Assembly: GCA_036172245.1 (NCBI GenBank)
Contig: JAYWIR010000044.1
Span: 1,612,001 to 1,676,000 of the forward strand
Direction of reading: 5' to 3'
Length of the DNA: 64,000 nt
DNA from: Raillietiella orientalis
Lineage: Eukaryota
In this document: piece after piece, positions 10,221 through 51,037 of the stretch
Position numbering within the stretch: the first letter of the stretch is position 1
Layout of the letters: each line of letters starts with the position of its first letter
Program-made: the position numbers and the translations under genes
Notes under the pieces: generated by a model
Database searches by the model: none
What the model saw: the letters and a program-made list of their open reading frames with translations, nothing else
Told to the model about the DNA's origin: nothing

Positions 10221-10225
10221 GCTCT

Positions 10226-12300: not shown

Positions 12301-12304
12301 GAGG

Positions 12305-17147: not shown

Positions 17148-17154
17148 TTGCTCG

Positions 17155-24612: not shown

Positions 24613-24617
24613 CGGCA

Positions 24618-26740: not shown

Positions 26741-26748
26741 TCGAGCGC

Positions 26749-27263
26749 AGGGCGGACGTGTTTTCTCGGTGCTCCTCGGCGGCAATAACGCTCTCTAGGA
26801 GCAAGCGTTCTGTGGTTCAGTGGTTGATCAGGCAGCGAGGCCTGACACGACCACCAGTGAGTGCCAGAAGGCGGCGGCAACGTCGAGCCCAGAGGCGATG
26901 GAGGTGGGGGTATCCGCCCCCACAGAATCGGTCCCCGCTGCAGAGCGGGCGTGGAGCGCCGTCGTGGCGACACCATCGCCTGCAGCTGCAGCGGAATTAT
27001 CTACCTGTGTGGAGGATAGGTATAACCCCTCACTACTCTACAAGGTAGGAGATTTGTACTCTTCTGAGAGCGCGCGCGAATTCTCGAAAGGGATGCGCGC
27101 TCTCAATGATAAAGTGAAGGAGCACAGCGCGATGACCATTCGCAGCGGGGGTAGTACGTGGAGGTGATCTGCCAACAGGCAGATCTGGCCCAGCGTCTGC
27201 TCAAAACCACCGTGGTGATGGAGACACGCAGGCTCCTTCCCATTACGGTGGACCGCAGTATGG
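26749..27263 (+). mobile_element. Family D LINE, 5'UTR and start of ORF1
   Basis: Same 27-nt 5' end as the copy at 10226; YNPSLLYKVG...MTIRSGG. Confidence 0.85.
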
Positions 27264-27290: not shown

Positions 27291-27318
27291 CCGGTGTAGT
27301 GTGGGTCCTCGGTGTCCG

Positions 27319-28855: not shown

Positions 28856-31800
28856 CACCTGGACTCGCCTGTCGCCGTCGGATCCGCGCGGCCAGTTGGA
28901 ATGTTAACGGGCTGCGCGACGACGGAAACAGACGAGATACAGCCGCCACCTTGCGAGATTTCGACCTGGTGCTTTTGCAGGAGATCCACGTGATCACCGC
29001 AAAAGACGCTCAGGAGATCGAAACGATCGCGGGAGGGCGGTTGTACTGGCGATGCGGCGCCCGCAACACTGGTGGGGTCGCGTTCTTCCTAAAGCCAGCC
29101 ATTAACGCGGCCATGAAGGACGTGCGCTTTGGAGACGACGGACGGATCGGCCAACTGATTCTCAGATGGTCCGATTCGATCGACCTCATCGTCACCAATG
29201 TGTACGCTCCTAGCGGTAAACAGGGATACCAGCAGCGCAACGCGTTACTGGAAACCTTGAAGCGTGAATGGCTGGTGGACGCGGACGTGCGAAAGGCGCA
29301 TCTGATAGCAGGGGATTTCAACGTCCGTCTGCTCTCAGATCAGCCCGGAGCACAGGGGAACGCGATCAACGAGTTGTGCGCCGCCATGCGCGCGCGCAAC
29401 TTGTTGACAGGAATAAGCGGGATGGTCAACAGCGTGGACCACGTCTTCCTCGACGAAGGCCTGTGCACACGGGTCGGAAAACGAGGGACACTTGGATCGA
29501 CGCTTTCGGACCATTCCCGGTTATTATTCGAGATGCGCCCGCGCGACAAGGGACCGCCATCTAGGGATTGGCGCATGCCAGGGGACTGGACGCGCCTGTC
29601 AGGAGCGAAAGAACATCTTCGCGAATTCCTGCGAGGCGTCACCCTCCAGAGTCTCGCGGATTGGGACCTATTTAAGGACTCGGTGAGGGAGTTCTGCGAA
29701 CAGTTTCCAGTGCAACGTCTGCCCCGGGGATTCGGCGAAGAGGCTCGCAACGAACGCGCGTATTTGCACGCGCGTCGTCACGAGAGGAACCCCAATGTCC
29801 GTCGCCTGGCCGAATACCGCGCTAAAGCCGAGCGACAAGCCTGGCAATCCGGGTCAGCCAGCATGCTGGATGACCTGGGCCGGGAACGTTGGTCCCCGTT
29901 TGCGGTACGGAATCTCGTGCGGTGTTTTTATTCCTCCCTTTACGCCAAAACTCCACCCGAACAAGACGCCTCGCGGCGATTGCTCATGAGTGGTTCCGTG
30001 GCGATAGGGGAGGAGGAGAGAGAAAGCCTCGATGAGCCTTTCACGACCGGTGAAATTCTCGCCGGTATCAAAAGGCTCAAGAGGCGTAAGGCGCCAGGGG
30101 AGGACGGCTTGCCCGCGGAGTTCTTTCAGAGTTTCGCGGAAGAGCTGGCCCCCCTGGTGCTCGAGTTGACAAGGCGAATCCGAGACGAAGGCGATGTTCC
30201 CGCCTCGTTTCGGTCAGCCAGGGTGAGGCTCCTCCCGAAGGGAGGAGACCTCAGGAAACTTTGCAACTGGCGTCCGATCACGATTGTGAACACGGACGCC
30301 AAGTTGATTGTCGGGATGTGGGCGTCGCGATTGGGGCAGGTGTCCAATTCCATAATTAGCCCGGAGCAGACATACGCTGTTTCCGGGCGAAGTATGGAGG
30401 ACAACCTCTTCTTCGCGAGCACATGGATGCACGCGCAGCGGAGTAATAAAGAAGGGAAAGGGAAAATTTGTAACCCTACTTTGGGGCCGCCAGTGGGACA
30501 GGGTAGGGACCCTCATGCGGGAAAGGGGGCCTTAGCGATCGCAGTCGACCTCCATAAGGCATTCGACTGTGTTGACCAGGAACTCCTCTTGGAGCTCCTG
30601 GGTCGCATGGGCTTCCCACCCTCCTTGATTTCTTACCTGCGCTCTTGCTGGCGGAACGCAATAATCTCCATTACTTTCAGTGGAAAAAACGTGTATGGCG
30701 TGCCGGTGCGGCGGAGCATAAGGCAGGGCGACAGACTCAGCCCCCTGCTTTTTAGCACCTACGCTGAGTTGGTGCTGAGAGCGTACAGGGTGACTTTGGC
30801 CCCCTTGCCGAGCTCGTGCCCCGGCACGTCAGCCGTAGCGGCGTATGCGGACGATCTTCTGCTCCTCTTACCTATGTCCACCCCGGCGAAGGCGGTCGGA
30901 GATTTCTTCGACCTGCTTAGCCGTGGGGCCGGATTACAGGTTAACAGGGCGAAGTCGTCAGTGTTGCCAGTTGGAGCGACGTGGGCAGGGCAGCAGGACT
31001 GGGTCCTTCTGGGGATCCCCACGGTGAGGTGCATCAAGTACCTCGGTGTGCCGTTGGGGGACTTCTCCCCTGCGGAAGCGTGGTCCAGCTGCCTCCAAAA
31101 AGTCGAGACGCCGATCGGCCCGTTCCTGGAAGGCAAGTTTCACTTGTCGGAACGGGCCGCGGTTTCGAACGCCTTCGCGGCCCCCATACTCCGCCCCTTG
31201 CTTTTTGTTTGCCCCGCCCCCGTGGAATCTAAAAAGCGGACGAAGGACCTCCTCCGTATAGCTCTTTGGGGCAAGGGGAGGCGCCGAGTCCCTTTGAAGG
31301 ACTTGTGCGCTCCGCGTCGGGACGGCGGTCTCAGTATCCTGACGCTGGAGCGCGTAGAAATCCAGCTGCGATGGCGGACCCTCGCCATCGCAGCGAAGAT
31401 GTGGAGCACCGCTTGGTGCATTCCGGCCCGTCTCCTGGCCAGGCGTGTGTCCCGCTGCGAAGGACTCGCATCGTTTCTTCTGTGCCCTGGCCGGAAGATT
31501 CGAAGATGAGGTCTACTGCTCGGCCGCATGGCAACCCTGGCAAAGGAGAACGACTGGATGGTTTGTGGCCCTGCCAACTCCTAAGCTTGGCTGGAAGAGA
31601 CTGCTGGCACCTGGTCCAAGCTGAACCAGAGGTGCCAAGACCAGATGAACTGCCTGCGAGTCGGCTTTTACGCCCGCCGCACTCTCCGTAAAATACTTGA
31701 ATTTCCACCGAGTTGCACGTGGGCGGAAGGCACACCCCTTGTTACGGCGATGCCCTTCCTCCAAAGGGCGCTTCACGAAAGCCGGAAGCCAAGGTGGCAA

Positions 31801-32445
31801 GTCTGCTGCCGTATCGCAGGCAGAGAGAAGACGATGAGCGGCTGGACCATGGGAGAGTTGACAGATGCAACGACCCCTAGTATCCAGCCGCGTGGATTAA
31901 GAAGATGGGGCGAGCTGCTCGGCATTCGATTGGATGACCTGAAGTGGCCCCCGGTTCTACTTGGATCCAGGATTCTTCCCCTGAAGTGGCAAGAATCGGC
32001 GCTTCTGTGGCTGCATTGGGGTCTACCCTGCAACGCGCGCCGCTTCCACTGGACGCGGGGAAGAGTGAATCCTGCGTGTGCTAGGTGTGGGGAGCGGGAG
32101 TCGCTCCCCCACCTCTTAGTTGAATGCCCTGCCGTCCGGATTCTTTGGGAACGTCTTCAAACGGCACTTGGGATACCGGATGCTGTCAACGGTGGATGTA
32201 TTTTCAGTCTTGTCTTCGTGCGGGACGCCCTCAGTCCAGCTGCAGCCCTGGCAGCACTTTGCTGCATTCGTGGTATAGTGGCGGCCTGGAGTGATGCCGA
32301 AGATGAAGACTGCATCGTGAGGGATGTCATCGAGTATGCTTCTCGCTTCCTGCAGAGAGCTACCCGATGGACCCATCTAGGAAGGATGAAAAAGGAACTA
32401 GAAGGCATCCTGCAAAGGATGGGCCCTTCCAGCAGTTTTCTGTGA
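28855..32445 (+). pseudogene. LINE ORF2 (APE endonuclease, reverse transcriptase, CCHC), single frame with two stops (31507-31509, 31582-31584)
   Basis: WNVNGL, LQEIH, NVYAP, GDFN, SDH, KAPGEDG, WRPIT, DLHKAFD, RQGD, YADD, KYLG, CARCGERESLPHLLVEC. Confidence 0.95.
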
Positions 32446-32670
32446 TCCCTTCCCGGCCCTCCAAACTTTTTTTTGTGGTTTGTTTTTCTCTTTAATTTCA
32501 TTTTTGTGTTCTCCCCCATCTCCCTCTACTGCTGAGGAGAGCCACACCGAGCTGCGTCCCGGTGTCCCGGCAGTTCCGGTATTGCGTGGCCGTCAGTAGG
32601 GCCTTGTACCTCGTTCTGTATTGATCGTTGAAATGTTTTTAATAAACGTCCCGGCGTATCCGGGTGGCAT

Positions 32671-35600
32671 CGCCCGCTCCCCGACGAATCAGGTCGAAGA
32701 AATCCTCGACACTGGACGCCGGGGTGGACATGGGGAGCAGAAGAAGCAGGTCATCAGCGTAGGCGGCCACGGCAGGCGTTCCCGGGAAGGAGCTTGGCAA
32801 GTGAGACAGCGTCAGCCTGTATGCACTTAGCACCAACTCAAAGAAGATGCTGAAGAGCAACGGGATTAAGCTGTCGCCCTGTCGGTTGCCCCTACGAACG
32901 AGAATACCATACACGCGGCAGCCCGTAAAAGTGATGCAGGTTAGCGCGTGGCGCCAGCACGCGCGCAAATACAGCAGGAGTTGCGCCGGGAACCCAAGGC
33001 GTTTCATAAGCTCCAAAAGCAGCTTCTGGTTTACGCAGTCGAACGCCTTGTGGAGATCGACCGCGACCGCCAAGGCACCTGGCGTTCCCTCCTGCCGTTG
33101 GCGCCTGTTCTTTTTGCCTGCGGCAGTGACTTTCGCAGCAGCCTGGCTTTGCTGCGCCACAACTTCCTGCAGCTGCATCCATGTACGAGCGAAAAGGATG
33201 TTCGCCTCCATGGATCGTCCCCGAACCGCGTCGGTTTGTTCCGGGCTCACCACAGATTCCGCGATACTTCCTAATTGCGCGACCCACAGCTTGAAAAACA
33301 ACTTGACGTCCGAGTTCACCAAGGTGATCGGACGCCAGTGGTTAAGTTGGCGCAAGTCTCCGCCTTTCGGCAGGAGACGCACCTCCGCTGAGCGGAAGGA
33401 ATCCGGGACATTCCCGGATTCACTCATCAGCGTCGCGAGTTTCAGCATCAAGGGAATGAGCTCCACTGCAAAGCACTGATAAAACTCTGCAGGGAGCCCA
33501 TCCTCGCCTGGCGTCTTTCGTCTCTTCAGCCCAGCGAAAGCGGACGAAAATTCATCCGCCGTGAAGGGCTCGTGGAGACGTTCGCGTTCCTCCTCGCCGA
33601 CAACACGAGCATCCTGAGACAGGAGTATCTCAGAAAGAATATCCTCCGTCTGGGATTCCGCGTAGAGCGAGGAGTAGTAGCGTCTCACAATGCGGCATAC
33701 TTCGGCTGGGGCCGAACATTCCTGGCCCTTGTCGTCCAACAGGCATGCTGCTTTGGACTGCCAGACCAGGCGCTCGGCCCTCGCCTTGTACTCTGCGAGA
33801 CGCTCGACATCCGCGCGTCTCGAAAACGTGCGGGCCTGCAGAAAGTCTCTACTGTTGGCCACGCCCTCTCCGAAACCGCATGGAAGCCGGTGCAAAGGGA
33901 ATTGGCAACAGAACTCGCGGACAGATCTTTTGAGATCGTCCCAGTCCGAAAGTTCTTGAATGGCAAAGCCTCGGAGGTATCCACGTAGATGCTCCGCAGC
34001 CTTCGGTTGGCTAAGCCAATCCGCCTGCATCCTCCAGCTTTGCAACGGAGGCCCCCTGCCTGGCGGAAGGATCTCAAACTCCAACCTGTTGTGGTCAGAA
34101 AGCTCAGTCAAAAATGTTCCTCTCCTACCCACACGCGAATGCAGGTTTTCATCGAGGAAAACGTAATCGAGCGATCTTTCCATTCCAGGTTCGCTGACCA
34201 TCAAGTTGGCGGCGTGCACGGACGCGCACATCTCGATGGGCAGCGCGCGCTCCCTCGGGCGGCTCCAATCGTCGGAGAGCAGGCGGACGTTGAAGTCCCC
34301 AGCAACGAGGTGCGCCACTTGGAAGCCGGAGTTGTTGAGCCAGTGGCTCTGCACCTCACCAAAGAAACCTACTCTTTCTTCGAGGTAGCGAGAACCACTC
34401 GGCGCGTAGACGTTCGTAACGACGAGATCGATGGACTCGGACCACTTGATGACAAGCTGGCCTATCCGACCGTGGTCATCGAAACGAACACTACGCACCG
34501 CTTCCGCCATTTTTCCTCTTACGAGGAACGCGACGCCGCACGTGTGTGCGCCGCCGCACCGCCAATGTAGCGTTCCGCCTGCGCGCTCCGCGATTTCGGC
34601 TGCCTGCTCGTCGGAGATTATGTGTATCTCCTGCAGGAGCGCGAGGTCGAAGGGGCGCAGGGCGTTGGCTACTAATCGCCTCTTCTCGTCGTTCTGCAGT
34701 CCGTTCACGTTCTAACACGTTACGGACAGACGACGAGAAGACGCGATTTCCCGCATTACTGCCGGGAAGCTGGCAGCTTTTTGCTTGCTTTATCCGGCGA
34801 GCAGACGGCGAGCCGCACGACTGGCTGGAGGGGACGGTCGCCACCGTCCTCCGTCGTGCTGCATGCATGTAATGCCTCCACGCCAGGCTTAACCTCGTCG
34901 GGTTTCGTGGCGACTCCGCGTTGCTTCGCGGCGAGCGTTGCCTGGCTGCCTACTTTCGATCGGCGCGCACACGCTTTTGAACGAGTTGTCCTCGTCTCGG
35001 TGATCGGAACGGCATCCATTTCGGAGTCCGACCGGCGCATGTTCGATCGGGTTTCGGCCTTCCGCGAAGCAGTGACAGGTTCCGCTGGATTGACAGCTGT
35101 CCTGTTGTCGTTTTCCGTCACCAGAGCATTGTTTTGGTGACGGCTGCTTTCCCGGCGCGCGCGTTTTCAGCGTGCTCACGCGCAGTTGCACGAGGGACCT
35201 TTGCTGAAGTCTTCTTCACTTCATTACGATTCCTCACTTCGCGTGGCGCCGTAAATGGAGATTGTGCTCCATTGCCATCTTTGAAGCTATCCGCGTCTTT
35301 GGACCGGAGCACTTTCGATGGCTCCGACACGGTCGTCATGGACGCTGCCTTCGGAAGGGCTTTTAATGCCTTCGTTGGCATGGTATCCGCGCCAGTCGAG
35401 AGCTTGCTCTTCGACTGCGACGGAGGGAGATTTTTCTCCGCTTTCGCGGTGTTGGATCGCGACGCGGATTTTTTTTTGCCGACTTCGAAGTCGACACGGC
35501 ACAACCCTTCTTACCCGATTTGGGCTTCTCAGCCACTGCAGTAGGTGAAGGAATGGATCTGACGGTACTGGAAGTGCCCTTATCGCCGTTGTCCATTGGC

Positions 35601-36755
35601 GTCTCCGCCGGTTGCTCGAACTCCGAGAGAGCCGGGCGTGCTTGGGAAGGACAGTTATTGCGCCTAGGGGGACTTATTATTGCCCCGGATTCCCCGCACC
35701 CTTTCTTTTGCGGCTTCCCTGCCGCGAGAGGGGGCGCGCAGGGCTTCGCGTGCGAGGTTCCCTGCTGCTTTGGGGCGACATTACGACTCGCGTTTTTACC
35801 GTATTTCTGCCATGAGGTCTCCATGTGTTTCGCAGATTTTTTGTTTTTATCCGCGCTTTGTTTTTTAGGATGGAACTCCGCAGCTGCCTTTTTTCGCAAA
35901 AGATCCGGGCAATTTTTCAATTGGTGCCCGGTAAGCTTGCAATAACGGCATTTTCCGGAGGGGCATTTATCCAAAAAATGCACCTCCTTCCCGCATTGCT
36001 CGCACGTTCTTACTTTGTCCACGAACCACAGGTGAACGACCGTGTCTTTCACCTGTAGTTTGGTGGGCAGCAGACGGCGGTCCGGCATTGTAAGCCGGAC
36101 TTCAGCGACTCCGCTGTGTATGGACGGGAAGTCCTTGAGGTTGCTACGCACCCTCCACAGCGCATGGACCGTGGCGAATTTCGCGAACGCGTTCCGAATA
36201 TCAGTATCGGAGATTTCCGACTCGATGTCGAAAATCTCCACCACAAATAAGTCGTCCATGGCGGCCGGGAAGACCTTCTGGCCACGGATCTACAACGGGG
36301 TGCGCAGCAAGCGTTGCACAAGTGCAGCGTCTTTGCAACGCACCTTGAAATAGCCCATGTCTTTTACGGGCATAATGGCGAGAAGGTCCTCCTCCCGCAC
36401 GCCAACACGGGTCAGCTCATCGTTGAACTGATTCCCGTCGCGCGCAGAAAGAAAACCACTCACCTTATATCGGAGAGCAGGTCTATAGCCTTCAGCTACG
36501 TATGCCCGAAACTCCGACTCGTCGAGTGGCTTCCCTTTGACGGCTGCTGTGGCAGCAACGTCAGCAAAACTCCTCTCCATTGGCTAGAAAGACGAAGTGG
36601 AGGCGGCCGACGGTTCCGCGATTGCAGATCCGGATGCTGTTCCTCCAACTTCAGTACCTTCAAGTTGGGTCGACATCGTCGTCAAAATGTACGACGCCAA
36701 GATGAAGCGGATGAAAGCACGGAGACGAGAGCGAAGAAAAACACGTCCGCACTCG
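32671..36755 (-). mobile_element. Family B LINE, intact 5' end to RT YADD region, cut off at 32671
   Basis: ORF1 36676-34756 (CEQCGKEVHFLDKC, CRYCKLTGHQLKNC); ORF 32639-34708 is APE plus RT; close copy of 41942-45870. Confidence 0.93.
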
Positions 36756-36763
36756 GTTGAAAT

Positions 36764-37908
36764 TTATCAGCCGGTCACGCCGGGGCGTTTATTAATACTG
36801 ATAAACTGGTCAGGGACAATGTCCTTAACCAACAGAACGACAGAGAACATAGAAAAATTACCGGCACGCAGGCCTGGTAAACAAACCGCTCGCAGCGTGG
36901 GAGGAATGAGGGGAAACAAACAAAAATCAAAAACTGGAGAGAAGGGTAACGGGTTTTTGGTTAGGCTCCGTACTCACGGGGATTTAAACGATGAGCACTT
37001 AAAATGTTCCGGAGCCTATGGGGACGCGGGTGTAACAAGAAAATACAAAAATAGTTTATGGAGGGTAGGGCAATGATCACCGGGTTGGCCGCTGCTGAGC
37101 GTGTGTAAACCGGCTGCGTATTGCGGCGAGATACCTCTTTGTCTCCTCTGTCAAATGAGGCCATCTAGCGGATGCTTCCATGGAGAAGGATGCTTTGTTG
37201 ATTACCTGTTGGTGCTGTCCGTTGATTACCAACGCCTGGCGGACGGAAACTATAGCGCGTATGCAACCGATGGTTGCAATCCTTGCGCTTAGTGAAAGCC
37301 CGCTCGGCGTGAAGAATCGTCGCAGCAAGTCTCTTGCGTTGTCCACGGGATGCAATAGTTCTGTTGCCAGCCTACGCCACAGTCCTTGTAGGACACCGCA
37401 GTCCAGAAGTAGGTGCGGAATCGACTCCGTCGATCCGCACCGAACGCAGTTCGCAGACGCAAGTCCCCCGGAGTCACGATGCCAACGCTCGTTGTACTGA
37501 AAGCCCCAGTGAACGAAAAGCAGCATGGCATGTTTCCAAGCAAGGGGGAGCAGGGAACTCTCCATACACTATGGAGGGACTACAAGCTCTTCGGGGGTGA
37601 CAGCAAGTTCTTCTGCCCACCGGAGGAGTCCCTTTGCAGTAACACGAGGAGTGGCGGCGTCCGCCAACTCACTTGTCTTATAGGTGCCAAGGAGTTTGGT
37701 TTTTCCCGCTATCGTGCAGGAAACCTCCCACCTCGCCGGTTGGTAACTGTCGTTTCTTGCCCTGAGGGCAGACAGCGCTGCGGCAAGAGGCGTGGCAGCC
37801 AGGGTAAAAAACTTCACCTCGTCCTGCAGTACTTCTTCCAAGGATCGTGGAAAAAATTGGCGCAGGGGGCGAACATCTTCAGGGCGTATTCCTTTTAACG
37901 CCGCCCTC
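36764..37908 (-). mobile_element. 5'-truncated family B LINE with 12-bp TSD
   Basis: Matches ~46550-47692; CTCGGTTGAAAT flanks it at 36752-36763 and 37909-37920. Confidence 0.93.
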
Positions 37909-37912
37909 CTCG

Positions 37913-39626
37913 GTTGAAATCTCCCGCTATCAGGTGAGCCTACCGCACGTTCGTGTCCGCCAGCCAGTCGCGCTTCAGGGATTCCAGCAGCCTGGTACGG
38001 TCGCTGTATCCCTGTTTACCGCTGGGGGCGTACACATTCGTGACGATCAGTTCGATCGAGTCGGAGCAGCTGAGAATCAGCTGACCCACCCGACCGTCGT
38101 CATCGAAGCGCACGCCCTTCACGGCAGCGTCGATGGCGGGCTTCACGAAGAACGCGACCCCGCAGGTGTTGCGGAGGCAGCACCGCCAATACAACCGACC
38201 CCCCGCGATCATCTCGATCTCCTGGGCGTCTGCCGCGGTGATCACGTGGATCTCCTGCAGCAGGGCCAGGTCGAGCTCACGCAGGGTGTCGGCCGTATCT
38301 CGCCTGTTACCGTCGTCGCGCAGGCCGTTGACGTTCGAACAGGCGGCGCGAATCCGACAGCGACTGGCGAGCCCAGGTGTTACTCCTGGGAAGATGGCGA
38401 TGCGGCGTTCGCCACCTGTTGGGCTGGGACGCTAGGTGGAGGAGGAAGGTCAGGCGCTGCGTGCACCTTGTCCCCCTCCTCCATGGGTAACGGCGCGTCG
38501 AGCGCGTCACCCTCAGGTGGGGTCGCGCCTACCTGTTGGCCCTCCTCCATGGGGGCGGGCTGTTCAGGCTCGGCGACTGCAGGGAGGACTTCGCCCCTCT
38601 GCTCACCCTCCTCCATGGGGGTGGCCGGCTCGACGGCTTCCGAGCGTGGGAGTTCCCCCTCCGGGATTCCCACGCTACCGCTAGCTTCCTGCTTCTCCTC
38701 CTCGCTGGACGAGGGGAGGCGCCTCCTGGGTTTTTGGGACTTGCGTCCCGACTTCCTGGGGGGTGCCTCCGAGGAGGAGGATGCACTTCCAGCTTCCAGG
38801 TCCGACTCACCTGTGGGGGCCTTTTTCGCGGGAGCCGGCCTTCGCACGGCCTTGCGTGAGGGGTTCTCACGCTCCGCCAGCGTGGCCGCGAGCTCCTCCG
38901 CCGCGTTTGCGAACGCGGCGTCCTCGGTGTCGACCGGCGCGTCTCGCGGCTCACCCTCTGTTTGCACAGAGGGTTCGCCGTCGCGAACTTCGGGAGCGAC
39001 GGAAACGGCGAGGGGAGGCTCTTCGCCCCGGGTGGCCTCTTCCGGAACGACGATACGTTCCAGTGCCACCGTGCACTCGTGCACGGTTTTCGAACGCGGC
39101 CCGGGTTTTTTTTCCTTACCGGCCGGCTTCTCTTTCTTCTCCTTTAAAGGAGCTTTTCTCTCTTTTCTGGCTGCTACAAGTTGCCAGCCCTCTTCACCTT
39201 CCGCCTCTTGGGAAGGTCTATCCTCCGTCTTTTCTTTTGGAGGTTGAGGATCTGGCAGCTTCAGCCGGCCAGCGTCCGCCTTAGGTCTTCTGACCTTTAG
39301 TGCGCGTTTCCCCTGCGCCTTTTTCGCGGCAGGAGGAACCGGAGTGGGGCGTTTTAGGCACACACGTCGAACGTGGCCCTTCTCCCCGCACATGTTGCAT
39401 TGGATGTTAGGACACTACTTGCGAAGGTGTCCTACGGTATCGCAGTAGCCGCAATACCGGGGCTTTCCCACGTACCAGAGGTCCACGCTCTCTTGCGCGA
39501 CCTCCAGCTTGTGGGAAAGCTCACAGTCCTTACTTACGGTTACCCGCGCTGCATCCTGGCCTCCTAAATGGCGATTGAAGCTTTCAAATATTGTTGGCTT
39601 AGGTCACAGCGCGTGCACCTCGCCGA
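37913..39626 (-). mobile_element. Family A LINE fragment (ORF1 and APE up to GDFN)
   Basis: ORF 38380-39393 is nearly identical to 40461-41474; APE breaks exactly at the GDFN codons. Confidence 0.92.
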
Positions 39627-41941
39627 CTCGCTTGGCGAGTGGAAGTGTGTTTCCTTCGCTCCCGAGTGAGTCGACAGGAAGCGGTTTTTTCTTGTGTTGT
39701 TTGGTGTGGAACATCGTTGGTGTCCGATGGCAGCGATGCCTAAGGACACCACGATGGAGGTAGGTGTGGGAAAGGCTTGACCACCTTCACAGCCTAGAGA
39801 ATCAGGGGCGTCCGCCCCGGAATAACCCTCGCCGCCCAAGGCGAGGAGCTGGAGCGCTATGGTGGCCGCGCCGAGCGCGGAAACCGTGGCCGAGATGGCG
39901 GCGTACCGGGCAGCTGGGTACAAGCCCAGCTTGGTGTACCAGGTAGGCCCCTTATTTGACGGAAAAACGGCACGCGCGTTTTCGAAAGCGCTGCAAAACG
40001 CCGGTGTCAGAAAACAAGATCTTGACGGTTTGTCCGTTCTCAGCGGAGGTCAGCGAGTCGAGGTGGTGTGCAAGGAGATCACCTTGGCTCAGACTCTGAT
40101 CACCAACCGTTGAACGTCGACGACCGCAAGATCTTGCCGGTGACGACGGACCGCTCCGTGGTGGTCCATCTCACTGGAATAACGAGCCGTATGACTCGCT
40201 CTGCAGTAGCACAAGAACTACAAAAGTTCGGCGAGGTGCACGCGCTGTGGCATAAGCCAACAATCTTTAAAGGCTTCAATAGCCATTTCGGAGGCCAGGC
40301 TGCAGCGCGGGTAACCGTAAGTAAGGACTGTGGGCTTCTTCACAAACTGGAGGTCGCGCAAGAGAGCGTGGACCTCTGGTACGTGGTAAAGCCCCGGTAT
40401 TGCAGCTACTGCGATACCGTAGGACACCTTCGCAAGTAGTGTCCTAACATCCAATGCCACATGTGCGGGGAGGAGGGCCACGTTCGACGTGTGTGCCCAA
40501 AACGCCCCACTCCGGTTCCTCCTGCCGCGAAAAAGGCGCAGGGGAAACGCGCACTAAAGGTCACAAGACCTACGGCGGACGCTAGCCGGCTGAAGCTGCC
40601 AGATCCTCAACCTCCAAAAGAAAAGACGGAGGATAAACCTTCCCAAGAGGCGGAAGGTGAAGAGCGCTGGCAACTTGTAGCAGCCAGAAAAGAGAGAAAA
40701 GCTCCTTTGAAGAAGAAGAAGGAGAAGCCGGCCGGTAAGGAAAAAAAACCCGGGCCGCGTTCGAAAACCGTACGCGAGTGCACGGTGGCACTGGAACGTA
40801 TCGTCGTTCCGAAAGAGGCCACCCGGGGCGACGAGCCTCCCCTCGCCGTTTCCGTCGCGCCCGAAGTTCGCGACGGCGAACCCTCTGTGCAAACAGAGGG
40901 TGAGCCGCGCGACGCGCCGGTCGACACCGAGGACGCCGCGTTCGCAAAGGCGGCGGAGGAGCTCGCGGCCACGCTGGCGGAGCGTGAGAACCCCTCACGC
41001 AAGGCCGTGCGAAGGCCGGCTCCCGCGAAAAAGGCCCCCACAGGTGAGTCGGACCTGGGGGCTGGAAGTGCATCCTCCTCCTCGGAGGCACCCCCCAGGA
41101 AGTCGGGACGCAAGTCCCAAAAACCCAGGAGGCGCCTCCCCTCCTCCAGCGAGGAGGAGAAGCAGGAAGGTAGCGGTAGCGTGGGAATCCCGGAGGGGGA
41201 ACTCCCACGCTCGGAAGCCGTCGAGCCGGCCACCCCCATGGAGGAGGGTGAGCAGGGGGGCGAAGTCCTCCCTGCAGTCGCCGAGCCTGAACAGCCCGCC
41301 CCCATGGAGGAGGGCCAACAGGTAGGCGCGACCCCACCTGAGGGTGACGCGCTCGACGCGCCGTTACCCATGGAGGAGGGGGACCAGGTGCACGCAGCGC
41401 CTGACCCTCCTCCTCCACCTAGCGTCCCGCCCCAACAGGTGGCGGACGCCGCGTCGCCATCTTCCCAGGAGTAACACCTGGGCTCTGCAGTCGCCGTCAG
41501 ATTCGCGCCACCTTTTGCAACGTCAACGGGCTGCGCGACGACGGTAACAGGCGAGATACGGCCGACACCCTGCGTGAGCTCGACCTGGCCCTGCTGCAGG
41601 AGATCCACGTGATCACCGCGGCAGACGCCCAGGAGATCGAGACGATCGCGGGGGGTCGGTTGTATTGGCGGTGCTGCCTCCGCAACACCTGCGGGGTCGC
41701 GTTCTTCGTGAAGCCCGCCATCGACGCTGCCGTGAAGGGCGTGCGCTTCGATGACGACGGTCGGGTCGGTCAGCTGATTCTCAGCTGGTCCGACTCGATC
41801 GAACTGATCGTCACGAATGTGTACGCCCCCAGCGGTAAACAGGGATACAGTGACCGTACCAGGCTCCTGGAATCCCCGAAGCGCGACTGGCTGGCGGACA
41901 CGAACGTGCGGAAGGCTCACCTGATAGCGGGGGATTTCAAT

Positions 41942-41968
41942 CGAGTGCGGACGTGTTTTTCTTCGCTC
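41942..41968 (+). promoter_or_regulatory. Shared LINE 5'-terminal motif GCGGACG(T/G)GTTTT..(C)GCTC, candidate internal promoter (representative copy)
   Basis: Variants at nine 5' ends: 5851-, 10226+, 17147-, 22004+, 24612-, 26749+, 36755-, 39635+, 41942+. The function is inferred. Confidence 0.55.
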
Positions 41969-44900
41969 TTGTCTCCGTGCTTACATCCGCTTCATCTTGG
42001 CGTCGTACATTTTGACGACGATGTCGACCCAACTTGAAAATACTGAAGTTGGAGGAACAGCATCCGGATCTGCAATCGCGGAACCGACGGCCGCCTCCAC
42101 TTCCTCTTTCTCGCCAAGGAAGAGGAGTTTTGCTGACGTTGCTGCCACAGCAGCCGTCAAAGGGAAGCCACTCTACGAGTCGGAGTTGCGGGCATACGTA
42201 GCCGAAGGCTATAGACCTGCTCTCTGATATAAGGTGAGTGGTTTTCTTTCTGCGCGCGACGGGAATCAGTTCAACGATAAACTGTCCCGTGTTGGCGTGC
42301 GGGAGGAGGACCTTCTCGCCATTATGCCCGTAAAAGACATTGGCTATTTCAAGGTGCGTTGCAAAGACGCTGCACTTGTGCAACGCTTGCTGCGCACCCC
42401 GTTGTCGATCCGTGGCCAGAAGATCTTCCCGGCCGCTATGGACGACTCATTTGTTGTGGAGATTTTCGACATCGAGTCGGAAATCTCCGATACTGATATT
42501 CGGAACGCGTTCGCGAAATTCGCCACGGTCCATGCGCTGTGGAGGGTGCGTAGCAACCTCAAGGACTTCCCGTCCATACACAGCGGAGTCGCTGGAGTCC
42601 GGCTTACAATGCCGGTCCGCCGTCTGCTGACCACCAAACTACAGGTGAAAGACACGGTCGTTCACCTGTGGTTCGTGGACAAAGTGAGAACGTACGAGCA
42701 ATGCGGGAAGGAGGGGCATTGTTTGGATAAATGCCCCTCCGGAAAATGCCGTTATTGCAAACTTACAGGGCACCAATTGAAAATTTGCCCGGATCTTTTG
42801 CGAAAAAAGGCAGCCGCGGAGCTCCATCTTAAAAAACAAAGCGCGGATAAAAAGAAAAAGTCTGCGAAAAACCTGGAGACCTAGGCGCAATAGCTGTCCT
42901 TCCCAAGCACGCCCGGCTCTCTCGGAGTTCGAGCAACCGGCGGAGACGCCAATGGACAACGGCGATAAGGGCACTTCCAGTACCGTCAGATCCATTCCTT
43001 CACCTACTGCAGTGGCTGAGAAGCCCAAATCGGGTAAGAAGGGTTGTGCCGTGTCGACTTCGAAAGTCGGCAAAAAAGTATCCGTGTCGCGATCCAACAC
43101 CGCGAAAGCGGAGAAAAATCTCACGCCGTCGCAGTCGGAGAGCAAGCTCTCGACTGGCGCGGATGCCATGCCAACGGAGGGATTAGAAACCATTCCGAAG
43201 GCAGCGTCCATGACGAGCGTGGCGGAGCTATCGAAAGTGCTCCCGTCCAAAGACGCGGATGGCTTCAAAGATGGCAATGGAGCACAATCTCCATTTACGG
43301 CGCAACGCGAAGTGAGGAACCGTAATGAAGTAAAGGAGACTTCCGCAAAAGTCCCTCGTGCAACTGCCCGTGAGCACTCTGAAAACAGGCGCGCCGGGAA
43401 AGCAGCCGTCACCAAAAGCGATGCTCTGGTGACGGAAAACGAAAACAGGACAGCTGTCGATCCAGCAGAAACTGTCACTGCTTCGCGGAAGGCCGAAACC
43501 CGATCGAACATGCGCCGGTCGGACTCCGAAATGGATGCCGTTCCGATCACCGAGACGAGGACAACTCGTTCAAAAGCGTGTGCGCGCCGAACAAAAGTAG
43601 GCAGCGAGGCAACGCTCGCCGCGAAGCAACGCGGAGTCTCCAGGAAACCCGACGGGGTTAAGCCTGACGTGGAGGCATTACATGCATGCAGCACGACGGA
43701 GGACGGTGGCGACCGTCCATTCCAGCCAGTCGTGCTGCTCGCCGTCTGCTCGCCGGATAAAGCGAGCAAAAAGCCGCCACCTTCCCAGCAGTAATGCGGG
43801 GAATCGCGTCTTCTCGTCGTCTGTCCGTAACGTGTTGGAACTTGAACGGACTACAGCACGACGAGAAGAGGCGATTAGTAGCCAACGCCCTGCGCCCCTT
43901 CGACCTCGCGCTCCTGCAGGAGATTCACGTAATCTCCGACGAGCAGGCAGCCGAAATCGCAGAGCGCGCAAGCGGAACGCTACATTGGCGGTGCGGCGGC
44001 GCACACACGTGCGGCGTCGCGTTCCTCGTAAGAGGAAAAATGGCGGAAGCGGTGCGTGGTGTTCGTTTCGATGACGACGGACGGATAGGCCAGCTTGTCA
44101 TCAAGTGGTCCGAGTCCATCGATCTCGTCGTCACGAACGTCTACGCGTCGAGTGGCTCTCGCTAACTCGAAGAAAGAGTAGCTTTCTTTGGTGAGGTGCA
44201 GAGCAACTGGCTCAACAACTCCGGCTTCCAAGTGACGCACCTCGTCCCTGGGGACTTCAATGTCCGCCTGCTCTCCGACGATTGGAGCCGCCCGAGGGAG
44301 CGCGCGCTGCACATCGAGATGTGCGCGTCCGTGCGCGCCGCCAACTTGATGGTCAGCGAACCTGGAATGGAAAGATCGCTCGATCACGTTTTCCTCGATG
44401 AAAACCTGCATTCGCGTGTGGGTAGGAGAGGAAGATTGTTGACTGAGCTTTCTGACCACTACAGGTTGGAGTTTGAGGTCCTTCCGCCAGGCAGGGGGCC
44501 TCCGTTGCAAAGGTGGAGGATGCAGGCGGATTGGCTTAGCCAACCGGAGGCTGCGGAGCATCTACGTGGATACCTCCGAGGCTTTGCCATTCAAGAACTT
44601 GCGGACTGGGACGATCTCAAAAGATCTGTCCGCGAGTTCTGTTGCCAATTACCCTTGCACCGGCTTCCACGCGGTTTCGGAGAGGGCGTGGCCAACAGTA
44701 GAGACTTTCTGCAGGCCCGCACGTTTTCGAGACGCGCGGATGTCGGGCGTCTCGCAGAGTACAAGGCGAGGGCCCAGCGCCAGGTCTGGCAGTCCGGAGC
44801 AGCATGCCTTTTGGACGACAAGGGCCAGGAATTTTCGGCCTCAGCCGAGGTACGCCGCATTGTGAGACGCTACTACTCCTCGCTCTACGCGGAATCCCCT

Positions 44901-47662
44901 ACTGAGGATATTCTTGCTTAGATCTCAGGATGCTCGTGTTGTCGGCGAGGAGGAACGCGAACGTCTCGACGAGCCCTTCACGGCGGATGAATTTTCGTCC
45001 GCCATCGCTGGGCTGAAGAGATGAAAGGCGCCCGGCGAGAATGGGCTCCCTGCAGTGTTTCATCAGTGCTTTCCAGTGGAGCTCATTCCCTTGATGCTAA
45101 AACTCGCGACGCTGATGAGGGAATCCGGGAATGTCCCAGATTCCTTCCGCTCAGCGACGGTGCGTCTCCTGCCGAAAGGCGGAGACTTGCGCCAACTTAA
45201 CCACTGGCGTCCGATCACCTTGGTGAACTCGGACGTCAAGTTGTTTTCCAAGCTGTGGGTCGCGCGGTTAGGAAGAATCGCGGAATCTGTGGTGAGCCCG
45301 GAACAAACCTACGCGGTTCCGGGACGATCCATGGAGGCGAACATCCATTTCGCGCGTACATGCATGCAGCTCCAGGAAGTTGTGGCACAGCAAAGCCAGG
45401 CTGCTGCGAAAGTCACTGCCGCAGGCAAAAAGAACAGGCGCCGACGGCAGGAGGGAACGCCAGGTGCCTTGGCGGTCGCGGTCGATCTCCACAAGGCGTT
45501 CGACTGCGTAAACCAGAAGCTGCTTTTGGAGCTTATGGAACGCCTTGGGTTCCCGGCGCAACTCCTGCTGTATTTGCGCGCGTGCTGACGCCACGCGCTA
45601 ACCTGCATCACTTTTAGAGGCTGCCGCGTGTATGGTATTCCCGTACGTAGGGGTATCCGACAGGGCGACAGCTTAAGCCCGTTGCTCTTCAGCATCTTCT
45701 TTGAGTTGGTGCTAAGAGCATACAGGCTGACGCTGTCTCACTTGCCAAGCTCCTGCCCGGGAACGCCTGCTGTGGCCGCCTACGCTGATGACCTGCTTCT
45801 TCTGCTCCCCATGTCCACCCCGGCGTCCAGTGTCGAGGATTTCTTCGAGCTGATTCGTCGGGGAGCGGGCGTGAGCGTGAACAGAGAGCAGAGCGTGGTG
45901 GTTCCTGTGGGTACGTCGTGGGAGGGGCACTCCGACTGGATCCGCCTGGGGATATCCACGGGCAGGTACTTTAAGTACCTTGGCGTTCCGTTGGGCGCTT
46001 TCGGCGCAACCGAAGCGTGGGCGGACTGTCTTCAGAAAGCAGAGTTTGCCATGAGCCCGTTCTAAAACGGCAAGTTTACCTTGCAGGAACGGGCGACTGT
46101 TTCGAACACCTTTGTGGCCCCCCTCCTCCGTCCCCTGTTTTTTGTTTTGAACCCCCCCTATGCGGCGAAACAGCGGGCTAAGCGCATGCTCAGGAACGCT
46201 CTCTGGGGTCCGGCGAGATCCAGGATCCGCCTTAAAGAATTGTCAGCTCCGCGTCGGGATGCTGGTTTGGGTATCCTGACAATGGAGCGAATCGGACTGC
46301 AGGTGCAGTTCCGACTGCTTGCACTGTGTGCCCAGCTATGGACATCCCCCCTGTGTGTGCCAGCTCGCATTCTCTTGCGGAGATGCGCCGGCAGCGGAGG
46401 ATTTCTCTCGCTTTTGCCGGGCACTCAATACAGGAAGCGGGGTTTCGGGTTTCCATTGCGGCAGTTGACCGCACTTCTGGAAGCACACTCGTGGATCTCC
46501 TGCCGCCCAATGAACTTTGAAGCTTGGCGGCAGGAGTCTGTTGAATCCTGGGCGGCGTTCCAAGGAATACGCCCTGAAGATCTTCGCCCCCTGCGCCAAT
46601 TTTTTCCACGATCCTTGGAAGAAGTACTGCAGGACGAGGTGAAGTTTTCTACCCTGGCGGTCACGCCTCTTGCCGCAGCGCTGTCTGCCCTCAGGGCAAG
46701 AAAGGACAGTTACCAACCGGCGAGGTGGGAGGTTTCCTGCACGATAGCGGGAAAAACCAAACTCCTTGGCACCTGGAAGACAAGTGAGTTGGCGGACGCC
46801 GCCACTCCTCGTGTTACTGCAAATAGACTCCTCCGGTGGGCAGAAGAACTTGCTGTCACCCCCGAAGAACTAGTAGTCCCTCCACAGTGTATGGACAGTT
46901 CGCTGCTCCCCCTTGCTTGGAAACAAGCCGTGCTGCTTTTCGTTCACTGGGGTTTTCAGTGCAACGAGCGTTGGCATCGTGACTCCGGGGGACTTGCGTC
47001 TGCGAACTGCGTTCGGTGCGGATCGACGGAGTCGATTCCGCACCTACTTCTAAACTGCGGTGTCCTACAAGGACTGTGGCGTAGGCTGGCAACAGCACTA
47101 TTGCATCCCGTGGACACCGCAATTGACTTGCTGCGACGATTCTTCACGCCGAGCGGGCTTTCACTAAGCGCAAGGATTGCAACCATCGGTTGCATACGCG
47201 CGATAGTTTCCGTCCGCCAGGCGATGGTAATCAACGGACAGCACCAAGAGGTAATCAGCAAAGCATCCTTCTACATGGGAGCATCCGCTAGATGGCCTCA
47301 TTTGACAGAGGAGACAAAGAGGAATCTCGCCGCAAAACACCGCCGGTTTACACACGCTCAGCAGCGGCCAACGCGGTGATCATTGCCCTACCCTCGATAA
47401 ACTATTTTTGTATTTTCTTTTAACACCCCCGTCCCCATAGGCTCCGGAACATTTCAGGTGCTCATCGTTTAAATCCCCGTGAGTACGGAGCCTAACAAAA
47501 AACCCGTAACCCTTCCCTCCAGTTTTTGATTTTTGTTTGTTTCCCCTCATTCCTCCCACGCTGCGTGCGGTTTGTTTACCAGGCCTTCGTGCCGGTAATT
47601 TTTCTATGTTCTCTGTCGTTCTGTTGGTTAAGGACATTGTCCCTGACCAGTTTATTATTATT

Positions 47663-47692
47663 AATAAACGCCACGGCGTGACCGGGTGATAA
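47663..47692 (+). other. Shared LINE 3'-terminal signal AATAAACG + CCCGG-loop-CCGGGT hairpin (representative copy)
   Basis: Fourteen copies (three lacking a clean AATAAAC), each at an element 3' end. Confidence 0.85.
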
Positions 47693-50600
47693 ATTTCAAT
47701 TTCCGCCTGCTAACAGGTGAGCCGGAAACACAAGTGAACGCGATGAACGAGTTGTGCGCCGCTATGCGTGCGCGCAACTTGTTCGCGGGTGAGAAAGGAA
47801 TGGTCCGCAGCATCGACCACGTCTTCCTGGACGCTGACCTGTGTTCACGCGTCGGCAAACGGGGGAGGGTTGTGTCGACGTTGTCGGACCATTCCCGGCT
47901 AATTTTCGAGATGCGGCCTCGCGACAAAGGACCGCCATCCAGGGATTGGCGTCTGCCGGGGGACTTGACGCTACTCTCAGGTGCGAAGGAACACCTTCGC
48001 GAATACCTGAGTGGCGTCACGCGCAGGAATCTCCAGGACTGGGACCTTTTTCAGGAATCGGTCCGCGAGTTCTGTGAGCAGTTTCCCCTGGATCGCCTGC
48101 CCCCCGGATTCGGCGAGGGTGCTCGCAACCATCGGGCCTGATTACAGGCTCGTAGGTACGAGAGAACCCTTAATGTCCGTCGCCTGGCTGAGTACCGCGC
48201 CGGGGCCGAACGCCAAGCCTGGCAATCCGGGTCGGCCAGCTTCCTGGACGACCAGGGCCGGGAATGTTCGTTCCCGGCGTCGGTACGCCATCTCGTGCGG
48301 AGTTTTTATTCCTCCCTTTACGCAAGGGAGCCCCCGGATCGAAACGCTTCTCGGCGCTTGCTTCCGGATGGCACCCCGGCAATAGGGGAGGAGGAAATGG
48401 AAAGCCTCGACGAGCCTTTTACCACCGGCGAAATTCTCGCCGGTATCAAAAGGCTCAAGAGGCGTAAAGCTCCAGGGGAAGACTGCTTGCCCGCGGAGTT
48501 CTTTCAGAGCTTCGCGGAAAAGCTGGCGCCCCTGCTGCTTAAGCTGATCAGGCTGATTCGAGACGAAGGCGATGTTCCCGCCTCGTTTCGGTCAGCCAGA
48601 GTGAGGCTCCTTCCGAAAGGGGGAGACCTCAGGAATTTAAAGAACTGGCGTCCGATCACGATCGTGAATACGGACGCCAAGTTGATAGCAGGGCTATGGG
48701 CTTCGCGTCTGGGGCAGGTGGCAGAATCCGTAATTAGTCCGGAGCAGACTTATGCTGTTCCCGGTCGAAGTATGGATGCCAACCTCTTCTTCGCAAGCAC
48801 ATGGGTGCATCTGCAGAGAAGAGAAAAGAAAGGGATAGGGAAAGTCGGCAACCCCACATTGGGGCCGCCAGCCGGGTTGGGAAGGGACCCCCGGGCAGGG
48901 AAGGGGGCCCTAGCGCTCGCAGTCGATCTCCACAAGGCGTTCGACTGTGTAGACCAGGAACTCCTCTTGGAGCTCCTGGGTCGCATGGGCTTCCCACCCT
49001 CCCTGATTTTCTACCTGCGCTCTTGCTGGCGGAATGCGATGATTACCGTCTGTTTCAGTGGACAAAAGGTGTATGGCGTGCCGGTGCGGCGGGGCATAAG
49101 GCAGGGCGATAGCCTAAGCCCCCTGATCTTCAGCACCTACTTTGAGTTGGTGCTGAGAGCGTACAAGGTGACTTTGGCCCCTTTGCCGAGCTCGTGCCCC
49201 GGCACGCCCGCCGTAGCAGCGTACGCCGACGATCTTCTTCTCTTGTTGCCAATGTCCACCCCGGCAAAGGCGGTCGGAGACTTCTTCGATCTGCTCAGCC
49301 GCGGGACCGGACTGCAGGTTAACAGGGCGAAGTCGTCGGTTGTGCCAATAGGTGCGGCGTGGGCAGGGCAGCAGGACTGGGTCCGTCTGGGGATCCCCAC
49401 GGCGAGGTGCTTCAAGTACCTTGGTGGGCCGTTGGGGGACTACTCCCCTGCGGAAGCGTGGTCCAGCTGCCTCCAAAAAGTCGAGACGGTGATCGGCCCG
49501 TTCCTGGAAGGCAAGTTTCACTTGCCGGAACGGGCCGCGGTTTGGAACGCCTTTGCGGCCCCCATCCTCCGCCCCTTGCTTTTTGTTTGCCCTCCCACCG
49601 TGGAATCCAAGAAAAGGACGAAGGACCTCCTCCGTATCGCCCTTTGGGGCAAGGGGAGGCCCCGAGTCCCACTGAAGGACTTGTGCGCTCCGCGTCGGGA
49701 CGGCGGTCTTGGCCTCCTGACGCTGGAGCGACTGGAGAAGCAGCTGCGGTGGCGAACCCTCGCCATCGCAGCGAAGATGTGGTGCACCTCTTGGTGCACT
49801 CCGGCCCGCCTCCTGGCCAGCCGTGTGTCCCGGTGCGATGGACTCGCGTCTTTTCTTCTCAGGCGTGGCCGGAAGATGCGAAGATGCGGCCTACTGCTCG
49901 GGCGCATGGCAAGATTGGCCAAGGAGAACAGCTGGATGGTTTGCTGCCCCGCCAACTTCCCCGCCTGACTTGAGGAGAATATTGGAACGTGGGCAGTGGT
50001 TCACCAGAGAAGCCACGAGACGTGGAATCGTCTCCGATGCAGCCCCTACGCCCGCTGCACGCTGCGGAATCTCCTGGAGAGTCCAGCAAGATGCAGCTGG
50101 GCAGAGACGACCTGCTTAGCTACGGAGCTGCCCTTCCTGAGGAGGGCACTTCACAGCAGCCGGACGCCAAGGTGGCAAGTCTCCTGCTGCATCGAGGGAC
50201 GCGAGAAGTTGATCAGCGGCTGGACAACAGGAGAACTGGCAGACGCCACGACCTTGAGCGTCCAGCCGCGAGGACTAAGAAGATGTGGCGAGCTGCTGGC
50301 CATCCCTATGGATGTGCTGAAGTGGCCCCTGCTTCTTCAGGAATCCAGGGTCCTGCCCCTTGAGTGGAAAGAGACGGCGTTGCTGTTGTTTCATTGGGGT
50401 TTACCCTGCAACGCACGCCGCTCTCACTGGACAAGAGGAGTTGTGGATCCTGCGTGTGTCAGGTGCGGAGAGCGGGAATCGCTCTCCCACCTTATTGTGG
50501 ACTGTGCTGCCCTTCGTTTCCTTTGGGAACGGTTTGGGACGATCCTCGGTCTCCCAACGGGCAGTTCCCCTAGAGACGTTCTTCGGCCCCTCTTCGTGAA

Positions 50601-51037
50601 GGACGCCCTGCAGCCAGCCGCAGCCCTTGCAGCCTTGTGCTGCGTCCGAGGCATCGTGGCGGCATAGAGCGACACCAACAAGGAAAAAGTGGGTCAACAC
50701 GCGAGGGATGTCATCCCATATGCCCAACGCTTCTTGCGAAGAGCTGCTGGATGGCCCCAACTGAGGAATATACGGATGGACCTCGAGGGCTTCCTTCAAC
50801 GGATGGGTCCTCCTCTCAGCGAACAGTGATCCCTTCCCTGCCCCCCAACCTCACTTGTTTGTTTGCCTTTTTGTTTTTATTTTTGTTTTTCCCCATCCCC
50901 TTTCGCTGCCGGGGAGTGCCACGCCTGGCTGCGTCCCGGCGTCCCGGTAGGTCCCGTGCATAAGGCCGTGAGCGGGGCCTGGAACCGCAATTGTAGAGTT
51001 TTTATGAATAAACGCTCCGGGCGTACCCGGGTGGCAA

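Follow-up and report, generated by a model that had tools for sequence, protein, structure and literature searches.

A LINE family of Raillietiella orientalis that probably favours one bond in the catalytic endonuclease codons of a sister family

How does one retrotransposon come to lie more than once in the same codons of another? The question is raised by a stretch of 64,000 nucleotides from Raillietiella orientalis (GenBank assembly GCA_036172245.1, contig JAYWIR010000044.1, positions 1,612,001 to 1,676,000 of the forward strand), called here the window and numbered from its first letter. Its first 53.8 kb, with 56-62% GC, are a nest of decayed L1-like retrotransposons without long terminal repeats (non-LTR retrotransposons, or long interspersed nuclear elements, LINEs), and 38,575 of these 53,800 bases (72%) are similar in DNA sequence to family A or family B. 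Family B is probably a sequence-specific, L1-like non-LTR retrotransposon with an apurinic/apyrimidinic endonuclease (APE-type), which prefers the site GGGG/ATTTCAAY in the endonuclease (EN) gene of family A; we infer that this specificity resides in the EN of B itself. We regard at least two separate B integrations at one phosphodiester bond as very likely, and we lean slightly towards a third, independent event on the plus strand.

On the plus strand, the 5' part of an A copy, A(+) (39641..41941, +), opens with CGAGTGGAAG (CGAGTGG... at 39641) and carries open reading frame 1 (ORF1), with CCHC knuckles read by eye, and the first two thirds of the APE EN up to the codons for GDFN. Directly after GGGG, inside those codons, lies a full-length B of 5,751 bp, B(+) (41942..47692, +), which starts with CGAGTGCGGACG at 41942, ends with GACCGGGTGATAA at 47692 without poly(A), and encodes ORF1, EN, reverse transcriptase (RT) and a C-terminal zinc finger; its ORF2 is in five pieces, with four stops and one frameshift. 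The sequence GGGGATTTCAAT occupies 41930-41941 (+), straight before B, and the 8-bp target-site duplication (TSD) ATTTCAAT, which falls within the codons GAT TTC AAT, stands at 41934..41941 and again at 47693..47700 (+). Behind the second copy the EN frame of A resumes (FRLLTGE...), and the 3' part of A(+) (47701..51036, +) supplies the remainder of EN, the RT (a 608-codon open frame, 48142-49968) and the 3' end ...CCCGGGTGGCA. The A-like element A2, 80% identical to A (27311..32670, +), retains the site GGGGATTTCAAC intact at 29311-29322 and reads without interruption as GCAGGGGATTTCAACGTCCGT at 29309-29329 (+), so that it serves as the empty-site control. From the perfect 8-bp repeat and the uninterrupted site in A2, it follows that B(+) is a simple insertion with an 8-bp TSD; by arithmetic, chance identity of the flanks would be expected about once in 65,536 cases for 8 bp and about once in 1.7e7 for 12 bp. 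The initial annotation had placed B in the GDFN codons and taken these for catalytic residues, and it was right in both respects, as it was in its coordinates and sequences: GDFN of A's EN aligns with the catalytic GDLN/GDFN of ExoIII and L1 EN, and the L1 double mutant D145A/N147A is inactive, with retrotransposition at zero, in the excerpts of PMC1950540.

Sequencing runs bear on this anatomy. One of the three listed, X1 (Logan contigs), contains the stretch, with 0.35 of the sampled words, and nothing came from X2 and X3. The X1 contigs, aligned at 90% likeness, possibly derive from the same sample as the assembly, and the junction data come from 6 of 71 loose ends and from the part of the 171 contig pieces that was listed. 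One contig joins 41942 to 47702 and omits 5,759 bp, exactly the length of B and a single TSD copy together, and therefore represents an empty A site, its shorter side of 30 letters being at the limit of reliability. Another (46672-47711) runs from the 3' end of B into A with 29 differences, and a third, of 3,755 letters, runs from 41913 into B.

Two length differences concern the B copies themselves. A segment of 149 bp at the end of ORF1 is present in the minus-strand copy described below (35669-35814) and missing from B(+) at 42882/42883, with CCT on either side of the gap and no direct repeats found at the indel; 8 bp at 44922 are absent from B(+) and present in an X1 contig.

The minus strand holds the evidence for repeated use of the site. 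There, a second A copy, A(-) (37913..39629, -), covers A positions 588-2300 at 96.4% identity to A(+) and ends in ...GGGAGATTTCAAC. It is followed by the 12-bp repeat ATTTCAACCGAG (37909..37920, -, read from 37920 to 37909), two filler bases GA (37908-37907, -), and a 5'-truncated B (36764..37906, -; B positions 4609-5751, 95.5% identical to B(+)), which sits at the same bond of A(-) as B(+) does in A(+). Then ATTTCAACCGAG appears once more (36752..36763, -), its last four bases, CGAG, being the start of the next B. This B(-) (32671..36755, -) is 95.1-95.9% identical to B(+). The initial annotation credited it with an intact 5' end, and that end is indeed complete; the element itself reaches only from position 1 to position 3930, since the 3' end of A2, on the opposite strand, interrupts it at 32671. 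From this junction A2 must be younger than B(-). The downstream TSD of B(-) and the 3' half of A(-) lie outside the window. The ORF2 of B(-) is open over 690 codons (32639-34711, -) up to the A2 cut, and that of A2 over 915 codons (28762-31509, +); judged from such frames, some members of these families may still have been active in the fairly recent past.

In the 12-bp repeat, then, 8 bp of A are followed by CGAG, with which B genuinely begins. Because A and one further element open with these four bases as well, CGAG must be element sequence, and the likeliest reading of the repeat is a TSD left by a second integration, in line with the earlier claim that the bond was hit at least twice. Truncation at the 5' end together with a TSD is characteristic of target-primed reverse transcription. 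In the simplest reading, a full-length B entered A(-), and a second B RNA was then reverse transcribed at the same bottom-strand bond; the opposite order would require CGAG to have arisen by chance, at 1 in 256.

Is the choice of site, then, a property of B? When the 3' flanks of 12 ends were aligned, ATTTCAAY was found after the two B ends (tail GATAA) alone. The ten other ends have different flanks, with CG within three bases in eight of them, and A-type flanks (tails GGCA, AGCA, TTCA) start with WCGCC in 4/5. For an unspecific element, the same bond for both certain events would be expected about once in 128,000 per event, counting this window alone (arithmetic). The window contains ATTTCAAY 12 times, where 3.72 would be expected: as four TSD copies, two empty GDFN sites and six sites elsewhere without B; since those six are empty, the 8-mer alone is insufficient. 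There are eight homologous GDFN sites, and both A-family copies are occupied by B. The A-like EN gene of another element, E2, carries a second uninterrupted GGGGATTTCAAC (2453..2464, -), and the site is GGTGACTTTAAC in both H-type copies and GGGGACTTCAAY in both copies of B itself, all four being empty. The initial annotation had made its case depend on B 3' ends being followed by ATTTCAAY, and this was true of both ends in the window and failed for one B-like end outside it (n=1), so that 2/3 distinct B-like 3' junctions, from the window and the listed X1 contig ends, lie at the ATTTCAAY of GDFN and 1/3 lies elsewhere.

Several observations weigh against a targeting rule for the family, or against counting three events. 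The perfect GGGGATTTCAAC is unoccupied in A2 and E2, as are the six other ATTTCAAY sites. The certain events number two, both within one A copy, and the claim at family level rests on only two to three events; the target choice of B's EN is read from junctions, and both B copies are decayed or truncated. The X1 contig starting at 41913 has a depth of 15, which is the entire depth of the B bins, so that one contig supplies all the depth over the 5' two thirds of B; B is therefore probably a very small family, although depth does not equal copy number, and it appears to be low-copy and decayed. The exceptional end mentioned above is an X1 loose end at 47694 (one contig, 28 letters) that is not followed by ATTTCAAY. 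Its letters best match antisense A-like EN genes in a scan of the window (score 17 against a mean of 5.8, standard deviation 1.3), with 21 of 28 identical to A2 at 28989-29016, about 300 nt upstream of GDFN, and the site reads ATCTCTTG, which shares AT.TC alone with ATTTCAAY. Either an off-target B or a relative with a shared tail may account for it. As for the plus-strand copy, three points would suit a single A::B ancestor. The divergence of A(+) from A(-) (62/1,714, or 3.6%) is similar to that of the two B parts (88/2,033, or 4.3%; 4.7% by BLAST), the derived changes fall symmetrically on the two copies of each part (A, 15 vs 23; B, 34 vs 36), and a further inverted duplication of similar identity (96.9%) exists in the window.

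These points bear on an explanation with one true integration only, in which both composites, plus and minus, go back to a single A::B ancestor that was copied by inverted duplication, by gene conversion or, as a composite RNA, through retrotransposition, and the minus pair arose by unequal exchange between TSDs and a deletion that kept the first four bases of B. Besides the equal, symmetric decay of the A and B parts and the other palindrome of similar age, it can account for the truncated and the 5'-complete B not overlapping in B coordinates. We nevertheless hold it to be very improbable, and equally so its core step of avoiding a second integration by an 8-bp exchange followed by a deletion that starts in the first few bases of a 4.6-kb interval: the latter is a coincidence of about 0.3% (arithmetic), exchange over 8 bp of homology is unlikely, and 5' truncation, TSD and two filler bases are the normal signature of a LINE. 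A composite transcript, moreover, would have to read through the AATAAA in the tail of B, where it should have been terminated. The 5' boundary of A(-) falls on TCGGCG, and TTCGGCG, which seems to be the target motif of A-type elements (see below), occurs just twice in A; the 3' flank of A(+) begins with ACGCCGAA. Since A(-) is bounded at such a motif, A(+) and A(-) look like separate integrations, head to head, and not like fold-back copies, and a random breakpoint of an inverted duplication would have missed the motif, which favours a third event. The initial annotation had derived three events from the T ending the plus TSD pair and the C ending the minus pair. This argument fails, as the C/C pair is a single target base copied by the second event and counts once; with both pairings about 4% diverged, one T/C difference is about equally likely within a duplicated composite or between A copies. 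The comparison of A-copy with B-copy divergence that it proposed speaks, as said, for one ancestor, and we would still place three events marginally ahead.

A more serious rival, although we think it rather unlikely, is that B is only loosely selective, favouring, for example, AT(Y)TC-like sequence or chromatin rich in LINEs, and that the double hit was a local re-insertion beside an existing copy from which no family rule follows. That both certain events fall within one A copy, that perfect sites were left unoccupied and that the off-window B-like 3' end sits at a different site having AT.TC are all compatible with it, and so is the head-to-tail order in which elements of other families meet at 17157/17156 and near 24620. 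On the other hand, the second nick was at the identical bond and not just close by, the plus-strand B lies at that bond in another A copy, and 72% LINE over 53.8 kb would have scattered insertions across tens of kilobases. An artefact of assembling a repeat-rich region is the least probable of all and scarcely to be expected. The flanks of several A-type elements are discontinuous across the insertion, repeats with 95-96% identity are hard to assemble, and the truncated-B junctions are not among the listed X1 contig pieces; against this, misjoins do not produce perfect 8-bp and 12-bp TSDs, and X1 contigs span both B/A junctions (41913 onwards and 46672-47711), with the reservation that they possibly come from the same sample and so are not independent. 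The likeliest reading remains a B that prefers GGGG/ATTTCAAY.

For such an element, the following route can be proposed. The ORF2 protein of B would nick the bottom strand opposite the bond GGGG/ATTTCAAY, and the freed 3'-OH would prime reverse transcription at the 3' end of B RNA (...GGGUGAUAA), without an A run, about 25 nt behind AAUAAA and within a 30-nt tail common to the superfamily. A top-strand cut 8 nt downstream, and once 12 nt downstream, would yield the TSD. The TSD would restore ATTTCAAY behind the unchanged upstream flank, leaving the upstream junction cleavable, and a second, 5'-truncated B could then enter at that junction, with the top-strand cut four bases inside the first B. 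The anatomy, both TSDs, the empty-site control and the position of the site in catalytic GDFN are observed directly; the positions of the nicks, the role of EN in specificity and the order of events are deduced from them. After an insertion, the upstream junction retains the whole flank plus 8 bp and the downstream junction has no GGGG, and re-insertion at the upstream junction points to a recognition site made up of the upstream flank and no more than 8 bp past the nick. The catalytic Asp codon is GAT in the target and GAC in both B copies and in two other EN genes outside the A lineage (H-type), a difference that alters the second base after the nick. It is tempting to speculate that GAC shields B from its own endonuclease.

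The sister elements also appear to land at recurrent sites. The A-type junctions, with the tail ...GGTGGCA, were placed at 14532/14533, 51036/51037, 51229, 32669-32671, 12295-12303 and 39622-39641. Two of their 3' ends, 14532 and 51036, adjoin homologous antisense PGFGEG codons, just behind EN, in two hosts. These hosts are identical at 115/194 positions, and the inserts at 146/192, 460/603 and 1767/2209 over their last 190, 600 and 2,200 bases; as a duplicated composite would decay equally and the hosts are more diverged than the inserts, the two junctions are independent hits. TTCGGCG or its complement CGCCGAA occurs 16 times in the window and within 6 nt of 3/7 A-type junctions, vs 0.8% of positions by chance; a fourth junction has TCGCCGA 9 nt off, and both TTCGGCG sites of A serve as junctions in family copies. 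A-type elements thus seem, from these positions, to possess a recurrent target of their own, TTCGGCG. A third recurrent landing site is probably the antisense KAFD/KAFN codons of two minus-strand RT genes, against which plus-strand elements at 10218-10232 and 26740-26756 set their 5' ends (..AGGGCGGACGTGTTTTCTCGGTGCTCC); for the ends at 10220 and 26744, the hosts are identical at 395/616 positions (64%) and the inserts at 427/571 (75%). Segmental duplication was considered as the source of the recurrent A-type and D-type junctions and rejected, the host pairs being 10-20 points more diverged than the insert pairs.

The choice of long, exact targets thus seems characteristic of the superfamily, in which B has a target of its own. 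More tentatively, and as something less likely than not, the LINE island might be pictured as a guild of site-specific sister families that land in one another, with B in the sense GDFN of A, A-type elements at TTCGGCG (twice in antisense PGFGEG) and a further type at antisense KAFD; B would then be a hyperparasite that disables the EN of a competitor with every landing and is perhaps protected from itself by a synonymous codon.

Some features of these junctions deserve mention. The left and right flanks of every A-type element examined come from different hosts (12303, 26740/26744, 39629/39641, 32670/32671, 51036/51037), without TSD or host continuity, and several junctions are head to head, 5' to 5'. 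The mismatch could have arisen from complementary DNAs spanning a pair of endonuclease cuts, or from a break that was primed at both of its ends. Other families show head-to-tail junctions on the minus strand at 17140-17170 (17157/17156) and 24590-24625 (near 24620), where a 3' tail is followed after 0-2 nt by the 5' start of the next element, CGAGCAAGAGCGGACGG..., with 86% identity in the first case; tandem pairs are accordingly not peculiar to B.

What kind of LINE is B, and how do its relatives look? The window elements share an ORF2 made up of an APE-type EN (PF03372), an RT (PF00078) and a C-terminal zinc finger. Pfam Exo_endo_phos PF03372 was matched on 41423-41941 with E 9.1e-07, and PF00078 with E 2.3e-22. 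The N-terminal position of the APE domain, its catalytic GD(F/L)N and its alignment to ExoIII and L1 EN are those of an L1-like APE LINE, and TSDs of 8 bp and 12 bp with a copy 5'-truncated from B position 4609 are LINE hallmarks. Against solved structures, human L1 ORF2p was the best match of ORF2 (E 4.7e-43), ahead of R2 (E 6.9e-14), a ranking among solved structures that is not a phylogeny. The CX2CX4HX4C motifs in the ORF1 of A and B were read by eye, and Pfam gave no zf-CCHC at E <= 0.01. In a large protein set, the closest of 24 hits came from a metagenome contig with 69% identity, and the remainder, unnamed or 'hypothetical' proteins, had at most 31%; a single close relative implies that the host is poorly sampled. 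The chimeric frame running from A's EN into B (41423-42037) had no hit at E <= 1e-5 in a set of 5.8 billion proteins and so revealed no additional A::B junctions, and a protein atlas returned generic APE+RT clusters only.

All families have in common a 3' tail of 30 nt, AATAAACG..CGGCG...CCGGGTG, followed by 4-6 family-specific bases (GATAA, GGCA, GAAAA, AATAA and others) in the 12 ends aligned; examples are at 47663-47692 for B and 51007-51036 for A. The hexamer that starts the tail, AATAAACG, resembles a polyadenylation signal and lies about 25 nt before the end of the element, and an A run was found at none of the 12 ends, which sets them apart from typical L1 elements. A 3' poly(A) tail is usual in L1 and absent from some other LINEs. 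The core tail pattern has 10 matches in the window against 1.69 expected. A fold of the tail gave five weak pairs without covariation, and we claim no structure for it; in a metagenome scan, the pattern returned three loci, all chance matches in unrelated GC-rich DNA without LINE context. One X1 contig begins to match at 47663, the start of the shared tail, after 255 unrelated T-rich letters, and may belong to another family with the same tail.

Among known systems, most sequence-specific APE-type LINEs fall into the Tx1 and R1 clades, and the targets on record include genes for ribosomal RNA (rRNA) and small nuclear RNA, microsatellites, telomeric repeats and transposons, according to the excerpts of PMC4640811. 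Tx1L of Xenopus laevis, whose endonuclease makes its nick at a single position of the DNA transposon Tx1D, is like B an APE-type LINE and, as B probably does, targets one defined sequence in a multicopy transposable element (passages of PMC1950540 and PMC6719617). Both are L1-like in a broad sense, and the putative CCHC knuckles of B's ORF1, read by eye, would be another common trait. Unlike Tx1L, B would have as its target the catalytic codons of a related LINE and not a DNA transposon, and its specificity comes from two to three events instead of biochemistry. The two are compared here by target choice and not by RT phylogeny. Zepp-type L1 elements of green algae form clusters by nested insertion into existing copies (PMC8226300, citing Higashiyama 1997), and Zepp/ZeppL resembles the window in its L1-like, LINE-only, nested clusters with many 5'-truncated copies, as far as the excerpts of PMC8226300 go; in the window, too, many nested junctions show that clusters formed by insertion into existing copies. 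In those excerpts, Zepp targets its own copies and a codon-level site is not described, whereas B enters a sister family at one bond with a TSD. Zepp 3' ends bear poly(A) arrays and the window elements no poly(A) run, and the likeness drawn here is one of cluster habit.

R1 and R2 resemble B in that one exact site is reused and that full-length and 5'-truncated copies share a 3' junction, and R1 also in its APE-type sequence-specific EN, as given in parts of PMC1919474 and PMC4640811. They target the 28S rRNA gene of the host, whereas B targets the EN gene of another LINE. The R2 endonuclease, for its part, is restriction-like. Human LINE-1 is the best solved-structure match of B's ORF2, and GDFN corresponds to D145/N147 of L1 EN. 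The human L1 EN recognises a short, loose consensus, TTTT/AA, and L1 has a poly(A) tail. B differs from it in its long, exact site and its lack of poly(A). A narrow keyword search of the literature found no paper on a LINE that targets the endonuclease codons of another LINE. By analogy with these systems, B would combine the site choice of Tx1L with the nesting of Zepp, at one bond within the catalytic codons of a sister family.

Sequence-specific LINEs are known to use such rRNA and small nuclear RNA genes, microsatellites and telomeres as safe havens, and Tx1L so uses a DNA transposon. If the reading of B is true, its haven is a catalytic codon of the sister EN, one retrotransposon family parasitises another and inactivates it there, and two closely related APE endonucleases have different long targets, ATTTCAAY and TTCGGCG. 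Such a pair would be useful for understanding how these enzymes read DNA and of practical interest for targeted insertion, and nesting of the B type may help to explain the growth of LINE-only islands, as in Zepp-type centromeric clusters. Should most B junctions across the genome lie elsewhere, the locus would be an ordinary nested LINE cluster with one re-used site.

Apart from the LINE families discussed, the last 10 kb of the window are richer in AT and have no match to family A or B. They contain the inverted duplication already mentioned (55861-59381 / 59858-63371), 3.5 kb long and 96.9% identical with a spacer of about 480 bp, in a region of 38-46% GC with no LINE match and no convincing ORF. 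At the other end, the EN gene of E2 is split by a block of about 1.1 kb (2744-3855), which ends in an A run of 16-17 nt and on whose two sides the host coordinates share about 8 bp. Such features suggest an element of another kind, with a poly(A) tail and a TSD of its own. Finally, an inverted pair of LINE 5' parts (3931-5862 / 21993-23925) is 92.9% identical over 1.9 kb.

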